Positions 45,602 to 45,766 of a stretch of DNA of 64,000 bases are shown here, one piece after another. The stretch lies in the NCBI RefSeq assembly GCF_003334815.1, contig NZ_QOWO01000001.1, one strand, 5' to 3'. The notes below the pieces were generated by a model. The model saw nothing but the letters and a program-made list of their open reading frames with translations. It was not told the origin of the DNA and did no database searches. The first letter of the stretch is position 1. Each line of letters begins with the position of its first letter. Origin of the DNA: Escherichia coli. Its GTDB lineage: Bacteria; Pseudomonadota; Gammaproteobacteria; Enterobacterales; Enterobacteriaceae. The position numbers and the translations under genes are program-made.

Positions 45602-45766
45602 TTATTTGCCGTTCAGCCCGCTACTCAGAAACTTTTCAATCACCTGGCTGCGTGAAGGGCGGATGCCTGTTCTGCGTTCCAGTTTGGCTTGCTCTCTTTC
45701 GACCTGGCGCACCAGGTCAGGGGCGAGGCGTACCGTTACGTGCTGGCGTGTTTCTTGTCGTTTCAT
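45602..45766 (-). CDS. ribbon-helix-helix (CopG/Arc/MetJ-like) small DNA-binding protein, 54 aa
   Basis: manual translation of the minus strand: MKRQETRQHVTVRLAPDLVRQVEREQAKLERRTGIRPSRSQVIEKFLSSGLNGK; beta-strand/helix pattern typical of RHH; absent from the ORF track (under 60 aa). Confidence 0.6.
   Translation of the reverse strand: MKRQETRQHVTVRLAPDLVRQVEREQAKLERRTGIRPSRSQVIEKFLSSGLNGK

Follow-up and report, generated by a model that had tools for sequence, protein, structure and literature searches.

The 64,000-nucleotide stretch of Escherichia coli DNA analyzed here (the window) contains, in the middle of an operon, an open reading frame of only 54 codons. A first-pass annotation had described it as an unlisted gene for a ribbon-helix-helix (RHH) protein within a cargo operon and had suggested that it and its neighbors form a toxin-antitoxin-like or self-regulated module. 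Three questions are raised by this locus: whether so short a frame is a gene, what kind of protein it encodes, and what that protein would do in the company of the genes around it. The frame itself is the following.

45602..45766, minus strand: gene for the 54-aa RHH protein (RefSeq WP_000828579.1)

The 54-codon gene and its fold

The position of this ATG-initiated frame had been given correctly, and its translation is exactly the sequence that had been quoted. The description "unlisted" holds for the open reading frame track from which the annotation was made but not for the genome record, in which PGAP/RefSeq carries the product as WP_000828579.1, a "hypothetical protein"; the identical protein is encoded in other islands whose DNA is 96% identical. 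The frame is a genuine, conserved protein-coding gene. A word-indexed search recovered 18 close homologs, and when 1.84 billion representatives were searched exhaustively with HMMER and the family profile, further proteins of 52 to 63 aa with the same pattern came to light. Homologs within this size range come from E. coli, Cronobacter, Atlantibacter, Serratia, Pseudomonas, and metagenomes. In nine of nine homologous loci, which range from E. coli through Pseudomonas to metagenomic sequences, no frame other than sense frame 1 stays free of stop codons, and pairwise comparisons of diverged copies by the Nei-Gojobori method give pN/pS values of 0.21 to 0.30 at pS values of 0.18 to 0.55. Absence of the frame from homologous islands had been named at the outset as grounds for abandoning the gene; we find instead that it is kept across E. 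coli, Cronobacter, Serratia, Pseudomonas, and metagenomic loci.

The RHH start codon lies 3 nt past the stop codon of the upstream gene, which encodes a 104-aa protein (TAAGCCATG), with an AGG at −12 to −10; in loci that are more remote, an overlap of 4 to 14 nt takes the place of the gap. This short gap, or overlap, points to translational coupling of the RHH gene to the 104-aa gene. On the other side, the gap of about 250 bp in which the gene had been placed depends on a 149-aa call for the downstream neighbor (45070-45519). The 165-bp RHH gene does sit inside this gap, but related islands call the neighbor at 105 aa, with a start equivalent to 45387, and 214 bp (45388-45601) therefore stay noncoding after the RHH gene. 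Two antisense open reading frames in this region, 45537-45773 and 45550-45882, were considered as real genes and rejected, as they are interrupted in three homologous loci (L020, L099, and L097).

The assignment to the ribbon-helix-helix fold was correct. As in other members of the RHH/MetJ-Arc group, an N-terminal β-strand is followed by two α-helices within ≈45 residues. Within the strand, R7-Q8-H9-V10-T11-V12-R13-L14, residues of the hydrophobic core alternate with polar or basic residues that would face the DNA, as is characteristic of the fold. The outward-facing positions are R7, H9, T11, and R13, of which T11 and R13 are invariant in the alignment of close homologs (A1) and R13 is nearly invariant in a second alignment (A2). 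A turn of the G-x-S/T/N type, G34...S38-R39-S40, is found at the N-terminus of helix 2, with G34 and S38 nearly invariant across the family; it aligns with the G..NRSE of NikR, and its loop is ≈3 residues longer than in the classical motif. In a monomer structure model, predicted helix 2 ends at residue 51 of 54, and the protein stops three residues later. The protein is strongly basic, with a net charge of about +7.

In a profile comparison, the RHH domain of NikR matches the family with an E value of 8.7e-5 and 37% identity over 41 columns. No shift of register separates the two in the strand (QHVTVRL versus QRVTITL), in helix 1, or at the G..SRS turn, and CopG aligns in the same way, but more weakly, in a profile comparison. 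Curated libraries, by comparison, do not recognize the protein: no model of Pfam, PHROGs, NCBIfam, or PADLOC matches it, and Pfam RHH_1 and related models fail to do so even at E ≤ 10. One remote family member has a weak, subthreshold match to RHH_1 (7.7e-3). Two family profiles searched against PDB sequences retrieved noise alone, and a Foldseek comparison with viral models retrieved uncharacterized RHH-like proteins and a few "putative regulators," none at E ≤ 0.001. Because no curated model matches a protein that has the RHH fold, we assign it to a new sequence family inside that fold, as a minimal stand-alone RHH protein. From the fold we infer that it dimerizes through an antiparallel β-ribbon and binds double-stranded DNA in a sequence-specific manner. 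The same lack of detection by Pfam, NCBIfam, PHROG, and PADLOC models means that automated annotation leaves the protein "hypothetical" in ≈1% of complete E. coli genomes (the segment with the 104-aa and RHH genes occurs in about 65 of 5,426) as well as in many other Enterobacterales and in Pseudomonas.

Stand-alone RHH proteins that act as repressors include Arc and Mnt of P22, CopG of pMV158, omega of pSM19035, SvtR of SIRV1, and ORF56. The protein studied here differs from these in lacking a match to Pfam RHH_1 and, relative to NikR and CopG, in a helix 1 and an interhelix loop that are 4 to 5 residues longer. NikR is moreover a chromosomal metal regulator with a C-terminal nickel-binding ACT-like domain, to which nothing in the 54-aa protein is comparable.

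The satellite island and its putative helper

The designation of the surrounding genes as a cargo operon was wrong, as they make up the late (capsid/tail) operon of a phage satellite. The island is a cos-type phage satellite of ≈9.3 kb, a "fis PICI," situated between fis and yhdJ in E. coli. Its features are as follows, from the attachment site and then in the direction of transcription.

42467..42481, plus strand: att site at the fis 3' end, identity block TACGGCATGAACTAA, repeated at 51813-51827; the island spans ≈42482-51827
50408..51643, minus strand: tyrosine integrase
47738..50113, minus strand: early/replication operon
49934-50113, minus strand: AlpA-like HTH protein, early operon
49644-49925, minus strand: 93-aa protein, early operon
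47972-49660, minus strand: VapE primase/helicase, early operon
47738-47962, minus strand: 74-aa protein, early operon
47696..47713, minus strand: terminator-like hairpin with T-run, closing the early/replication operon
47363..47670, no strand: iteron field of GGTGTCAT repeats in both orientations
47278..47350, minus strand: cos-like block of 73 bp upstream of the capsid-like gene, with a putative cohesive end at ≈47316-47300
46087..46971, minus strand: 294-aa protein resembling a major capsid protein; its gene opens the late operon
45770..46084, minus strand: 104-aa protein, function unassigned, always directly before the RHH gene and apparently coupled to it
45388..45601, minus strand: noncoding spacer with a conserved structured element, from the RHH gene to the next gene
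45402..45412, no strand: palindrome ACAAYNRTTGT, 15 nt upstream of the 105-aa gene start
45070..45387, minus strand: 105-aa protein (149 aa from 45519 in PGAP; the start at 45387 agrees with related islands)
44854..45060, minus strand: 68-aa protein, directly upstream of the tape measure gene
42559..44832, minus strand: tail tape measure protein of 757 aa; its gene closes the late operon (PHROG 28, 2.7e-129; TIGR01760, 5.4e-71)

The block TACGGCATGAACTAA is the identity block given for fis PICIs in the searched passages of PMC10111431, and the island is integrated with it at the 3' end of fis. Also in agreement with these passages are the order of zones between fis and yhdJ, in which an inward-facing integrase is followed by AlpA, a primase/replication zone, and a late zone, and the overall size of ≈10 kb. 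The same passages make no mention of "ribbon" or "tape (measure)," and no description was found in them of the RHH and tape measure genes, of the Jilinvirus-type cos site, or of the RNA element (the last two discussed below). The satellite system around the RHH gene appears to have been described only in part. The iteron field between the early and late operons is the probable replication origin of the satellite.

The RHH gene is the third of six late-operon genes (seven in sister islands), in the order 294-aa, 104-aa, RHH, 214-bp spacer, 105-aa, 68-aa, and 757-aa tape measure. The 294-aa protein itself has no direct sequence match in Pfam or the PDB. Homologs that share 48 to 52% identity with it carry a fused Peptidase_S78 prohead protease domain (P0121, P0122, and P0124), the protease part of one such fusion matches PHROG major head/protease families, and a Serratia homolog is named "Phage major capsid protein" in UniRef. 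We read the 294-aa protein as a capsid-protein homolog. For the 105-aa protein, no family match was found in profile libraries including PHROG, NCBIfam, and PADLOC, and a comparison with the tail chaperone of the putative helper showed no relationship.

Every RHH locus that we retrieved contains the same trio of genes, namely a capsid-like protein (292-326 aa), a protein of 93 to 131 aa as called, and the RHH protein (52-59 aa). The trio is found in E. coli variants and in Cronobacter, where it is likewise located at fis. It also occurs on circular plasmid-like forms of ≈9 kb in E. coli, Proteus, and Salmonella, which have a different primase and no integrase. Serratia has the trio without the tape measure gene, Pseudomonas carries it at another integration site, and in distant metagenomic contigs a gene of ≈205 aa stands ahead of it. 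What lies downstream of the RHH gene varies, being a spacer of 111 to 214 bp, an AbiEi-like gene pair (locus L020), or, in Pseudomonas, the next gene directly; the AbiEi-like insertion is an accessory variant. A related satellite embedded in its helper, a Salmonella prophage, encodes a protease-capsid fusion, a tape-measure-like protein, and a 155-aa homolog of the 104-aa protein; it lacks an RHH gene, which indicates that the RHH protein is not indispensable to that cassette. A tblastn search of 50,697 phage records revealed no homolog of either the RHH or the capsid-like protein. The RHH gene belongs to the core of a compact family of satellites, which bring a capsid-like protein and, in most cases, a tape measure protein of their own.

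Two kinds of similarity connect this satellite to a particular group of phages. At the nucleotide level, the tape measure gene is ≈77% identical to its Jilinvirus counterpart, and the tape measure and primase genes are in parts 77 to 81% identical to those of the Jilinvirus myophages ECO1230-10, ep3, ECOO78, Arya, PT1, and HeidiAbel_Bas97. In addition, the 73-bp block upstream of the capsid-like gene, which is conserved in sister satellites, is 97 to 98.6% identical to unannotated DNA of ECO1230-10, ep3, and Bas97. In ep3 this block lies ≈250 bp upstream of the small terminase gene, and in the records of ECOO78 and Arya it directly adjoins position 1; from these two placements, it is very probably the cos site of the helper. 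The findings support a cos site shared with a Jilinvirus-type helper, the genome termini being taken from record ends alone, and point to Jilinvirus-type myophages as the helper. The identity between satellite and phage is limited to the 73 bp. Toward the phage terminase genes, including that for the small terminase, it stops ≈22 nt past the putative cohesive end, and the cosB-side sequence therefore differs from that of the helper. No paper linking the terms "Jilinvirus" and "satellite" was found in a literature search, and no helper for this satellite family is named in the searchable literature. The identity of the cos block offers Jilinvirus in this role and, with it, an experimentally tractable system.

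Candidate roles of the RHH protein

The proposal of a toxin-antitoxin-like module finds no support in the late operon. As a type II antitoxin, the RHH protein would neutralize, and together with it co-repress, a toxin encoded by the 104-aa or the 105-aa gene. The RHH antitoxins (ParD/PrpA, MazE9, TacA, VapB12, and HicB) do have the DNA-binding fold in common with the satellite protein, but they possess a toxin-binding extension or domain and an adjoining toxin gene, both of which are absent here. Neither the 104-aa nor the 105-aa protein has a significant match to a toxin family in Pfam, NCBIfam, PHROGs, or PADLOC, and a model of the 104-aa protein shows no toxin-like fold. The end of the RHH protein so soon after helix 2 leaves no C-terminal tail for neutralizing a toxin, and the gene pair, rather than forming a self-contained, autoregulated two-gene operon, is found within a capsid/tail operon with no promoter-like site beside it. 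A homolog of the 104-aa protein exists without an RHH protein in the related Salmonella satellite, which a toxin should not tolerate, and the AbiEi-like genes of locus L020 belong to an accessory variant. In the absence of both a toxin partner and a C-terminal extension, the antitoxin reading is unsupported, and we regard it as hardly credible.

We tentatively favor, as plausible if still short of probable, a role for the RHH protein as a small transcriptional regulator that acts late, on genes of the satellite or of the helper. The protein would be made only when the late operon is on, in a fixed ratio to the 104-aa protein through translational coupling, and its dimer would occupy a specific double-stranded DNA site. 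In the manner of Arc, CopG, or omega, it might then feed back on the late operon of the satellite or repress competing helper or satellite genes; autoregulation, as the first-pass annotation had suggested, is possible. The evidence for the fold and the DNA-binding features kept in both alignments (A1 and A2) favor such a regulator, as does the position of its gene, embedded in the late operon in such close contact with the upstream gene and with no promoter-like or terminator-like site found between it and the next gene (45388-45601). Against it stand the lack of the RHH gene in a related satellite that has the capsid-like and 104-aa genes and the close coupling to a capsid cassette, which would be odd for a pure transcription factor and which a function in packaging or assembly would explain equally well. 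No operator was found either, the only conserved short motifs being the cos block and the palindrome ACAAYNRTTGT. In a search for operators around the operon, the repeats were mostly origin iterons, and upstream of the capsid gene there is no conserved 8-mer besides part of the cos block. The repeat CTATTGTNNNCGG, which stands ahead of the capsid gene as well as the 105-aa gene, does not significantly exceed chance (6 matches versus 3.3 expected), and the island has no late promoter dyad of the P2/P4 type (TGT-N12-ACA).

A location as the third gene of a capsid/tail operon sets the satellite RHH protein apart from the stand-alone RHH repressors, whose genes are promoter-proximal and autoregulated. 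It is reminiscent of P4 delta, a zinc-finger activator encoded within the sid-delta-psu operon and co-transcribed with a capsid-remodeling gene. The PLE regulator CapR is co-transcribed with satellite capsid-remodeling genes as well, according to the summary in the searched passages of PMC10111431. Like these two regulators, the RHH protein is a putative DNA-binder in a late operon, but it differs from both in fold and is homologous to neither, CapR being a member of the Bro network.

The cos block suggests a second role, that of an adaptor for packaging specificity analogous to Rpp, in which the RHH protein, maybe with the 104-aa protein, would bind a cosB-like region, specific to the satellite and adjacent to the helper-type cosN, and recruit the helper terminase to satellite DNA. 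In EcCICFT073, RppA steers the helper terminase to satellite DNA, and Rpp is a winged-HTH dimer of 144 to 153 aa whose coiled-coil dimerization domain binds the helper TerS (PMC6739421). The likeness between the two systems lies in a small DNA-binding protein of a cos-type Gram-negative PICI (RppA/B/C in the known case) and in islands that share cosN with the helper but not the adjoining region, the cosB side being different here as in EcCICFT073 (PMC6739421). The cos-adjoining region is moreover conserved among sister satellites, and the RHH gene, inside the capsid cassette, would be expressed at packaging time. The proteins, however, are related in neither sequence nor fold, as the RHH protein, with 54 aa, lacks the winged-HTH N-domain and coiled-coil of the ≈145-aa Rpp architecture. 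Neither the RHH nor the 104-aa family resembles the small terminase of the helper. Downstream of cos, a search for repeated R-like elements found none, and the genome termini are taken from record ends only. On this evidence we consider an adaptor function unlikely.

A third reading, in which the RHH protein is directed at the helper, comes from the palindrome ACAAYNRTTGT, which the RHH protein might read to reprogram helper expression or to compete with a ParB/KorB-like factor of the helper. The palindrome has the twofold symmetry that a dimer site should have and occurs three times in the island (versus 0.017 expected), eight times in phage ep3 (versus 0.13 expected), and not once in the host flanks (54.6 kb). 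Every enterobacterial member with nearly the same RHH strand residues has it, and the copy 15-16 nt upstream of the 105-aa gene, the gene that follows RHH, recurs at the same spacing upstream of the tail-chaperone gene in ep3 and ECO1230-10. Phage ep3, however, has no RHH homolog, as judged from an hmmsearch of its open reading frames with the RHH profile and all filters off, and another factor must therefore bind there. From the eight palindromes in ep3, the site probably belongs to a helper or host factor, and because one of the ep3 copies lies just upstream of a gene for a ParB-like protein, this phage protein is a candidate reader. In the commonest E. coli variant (L003 type), no such copy stands ahead of the 105-aa gene, which also speaks against recognition by the RHH protein, and we judge such recognition to be rather improbable. 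The other two island copies of the palindrome are at 47723-47733 and 49805-49815.

Finally, the RHH fold could serve in assembly or in the virion rather than in gene regulation, for instance as a binder of DNA ends or of the capsid interior that is packaged with the genome. The constant place after the capsid gene, the stoichiometric coupling, and the high positive charge would suit such a protein. The fold matches, in turn, include no structural phage protein, and the conserved residues are the canonical DNA-reading positions, which makes this reading very unlikely.

Beyond the regulator that we tentatively favor, there is some small probability that the RHH protein and the coupled 104-aa protein together constitute a hitherto unrecognized module for packaging or helper hijacking that reads the cosN-adjoining region or ACAAYNRTTGT. 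Such a module would be an RHH-based counterpart of Rpp or CapR, diverting the Jilinvirus terminase or the helper regulatory network. The target of the RHH protein, once known, would show how the satellite times or redirects late functions.

A structured RNA element in the spacer

The 214 bp between the RHH gene and the 105-aa gene contain a conserved structured element. In the alignment, 90% of cells are paired, versus 24 to 47% in slid controls, and eight pairs are changed on both sides. The L020 variant, in which the AbiEi-like gene pair follows the RHH gene, indicates to which side this element belongs, as hairpin 2 and the pseudoknot stay with the 105-aa gene and not with the RHH gene. Since they travel in this manner, the element is probably the leader of the tail-gene part of the late operon. 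An Rfam scan of the island at E ≤ 1 assigned no family to it, C4 and isrK included, and a blastn comparison with phages gave no match. A scan of IMG/VR with the pseudoknot core pattern yielded just three additional true copies, the others being chance occurrences.

Three substructures can be distinguished within the spacer. Hairpin 1 (45580-45554) has the stem CCGGTT/AACCGG, which is replaced in Cronobacter by CCTGTC/GACAGG, a compensatory change. Hairpin 2 (45539-45521) carries the loop UCCUCAG, of which UCCUC is conserved. The third is an H-type pseudoknot (45510-45475) of the form CCAGG-UU-GGUGGU-CAU-CCUGG-N9-ACCACC. The Serratia spacer has the same topology with a different sequence.

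The structured element and the start of the 105-aa gene

The RHH gene is separated from the next gene of the late operon by a conserved structured element, which comprises two hairpins followed by an H-type pseudoknot and has a counterpart in a Serratia fis island:

45388-45601, minus strand: structured element 3′ of the RHH gene, up to the following gene
45580-45554 and 45539-45521, minus strand: the two hairpins of the element
45510-45475, minus strand: the H-type pseudoknot of the element
8367-8477 of Serratia locus L099: the counterpart of the element

Compensatory changes within the element are found in Cronobacter, in comparison locus L011, and in Serratia. 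Neither Rfam nor the phages yielded a match to it. The element may act as a leader governing the tail-gene half of the late operon.

This element also bears on the annotation of the gene that follows. PGAP calls a 149-aa ORF at 45070-45519 (minus strand), the first 44 codons of which traverse the structured non-coding DNA. In islands whose spacer is 58 nt shorter, the gene is called at 105 aa. We consider that the true start probably lies at 45387, which gives a protein of 105 aa beginning MKKHDLYES.

In one E. coli variant (L020/L021, 3399-4083), two genes, one for a 159-aa, weakly AbiEi-like protein and one for a 73-aa protein, are inserted immediately 3′ of a divergent RHH gene (38% identity), with a one-base overlap between the RHH stop codon and the start of the inserted gene. 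The insertion marks this site as an accessory-gene hot spot. The 89-aa protein P0019 is a deletion product in which RHH residues 1-33 are joined to the C-terminal ≈55 residues of the tape measure protein, and internal late-operon deletions therefore occur in nature.

Sequence signals shared with Jilinvirus phages

Upstream of the capsid-like gene, the satellite carries a short cos-like block, and an ORF has been called nearby on the opposite strand:

47278-47350, minus strand: 73-bp cos-like block 5′ of the capsid-like gene, with identity to Jilinvirus
47406-47735, plus strand: hypothetical-protein ORF (318 bp in RefSeq) within the iteron field, where the replication origin probably lies

The block is 97 to 98.6% identical to non-coding DNA of the Jilinvirus myophages ECO1230-10, ep3, Bas97, and PT1, and in ECOO78 and Arya it is found at the termini of the records. 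From this terminal position, the block is very probably the cos site of the helper phage, and a cohesive end is predicted near 47316-47300. Its identity gives this fis-PICI type a named helper family, Jilinvirus; our literature search found no paper that connects Jilinvirus with satellites. The plus-strand ORF, whose peptide includes repeated "MTP" segments, is probably not a gene.

A second signal common to satellite and phage is the palindrome ACAAYNRTTGT, which is strongly over-represented in both: the satellite has three copies where 0.017 are expected, and phage ep3 has eight where 0.13 are expected. No copy occurs in the 54.6 kb of host flank. The satellite copies are as follows:

45402-45412: ACAAYNRTTGT
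47723-47733: ACAAYNRTTGT
49805-49815: ACAAYNRTTGT

The motif stands 15 to 16 nt upstream of the satellite 105-aa gene and, in the phages, upstream of the tail-chaperone gene at the same spacing. Another phage copy lies a short way upstream of the gene for the ParB-like protein.

The late module in plasmid-like records and other islands

The late module of the window satellite (capsid-like, 104-aa, RHH, 105-aa, small genes, and tape measure) is also carried by circular, non-mobilizable plasmid records of ≈9 kb and by stand-alone contigs from E. coli, Proteus, Salmonella, and Cronobacter (L009, L010, L022 (CP054330.1), NZ_CP104987.1, NZ_CP083588.1, and NZ_CP100673.1). These records and contigs lack an integrase, and in some the primase is of another kind (PriCT_2/DUF5906 or toprim). 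Relative to each other, L009 and L010 appear to be circularly permuted. All of them represent either plasmid-like satellites or excised forms.

In a Salmonella prophage, a helper-embedded satellite (L023/L024, 4859-13576) sits within the protease-capsid gene of the prophage. It encodes its own protease-capsid fusion (51% identity to the 294-aa protein of the window), a homolog of the 104-aa protein with 155 residues, and a tape-measure-like protein of 521 aa, and it has no RHH gene. The Serratia fis islands (L099/L100) keep the trio of capsid-like, 104-aa, and RHH genes without a tape measure gene, and one of them has a SocA_Panacea-domain gene. The trio is likewise kept in Pseudomonas islands (L097/L098), which occupy a different integration site and encode a Phage_tail_X protein together with a tape measure protein. 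In sister islands, an additional 69-aa gene, missing from the window island, separates the genes for the 105-aa and 68-aa proteins, a difference of ≈211 bp (window ≈45060-45070 versus 8270-8479 of sister locus L002).
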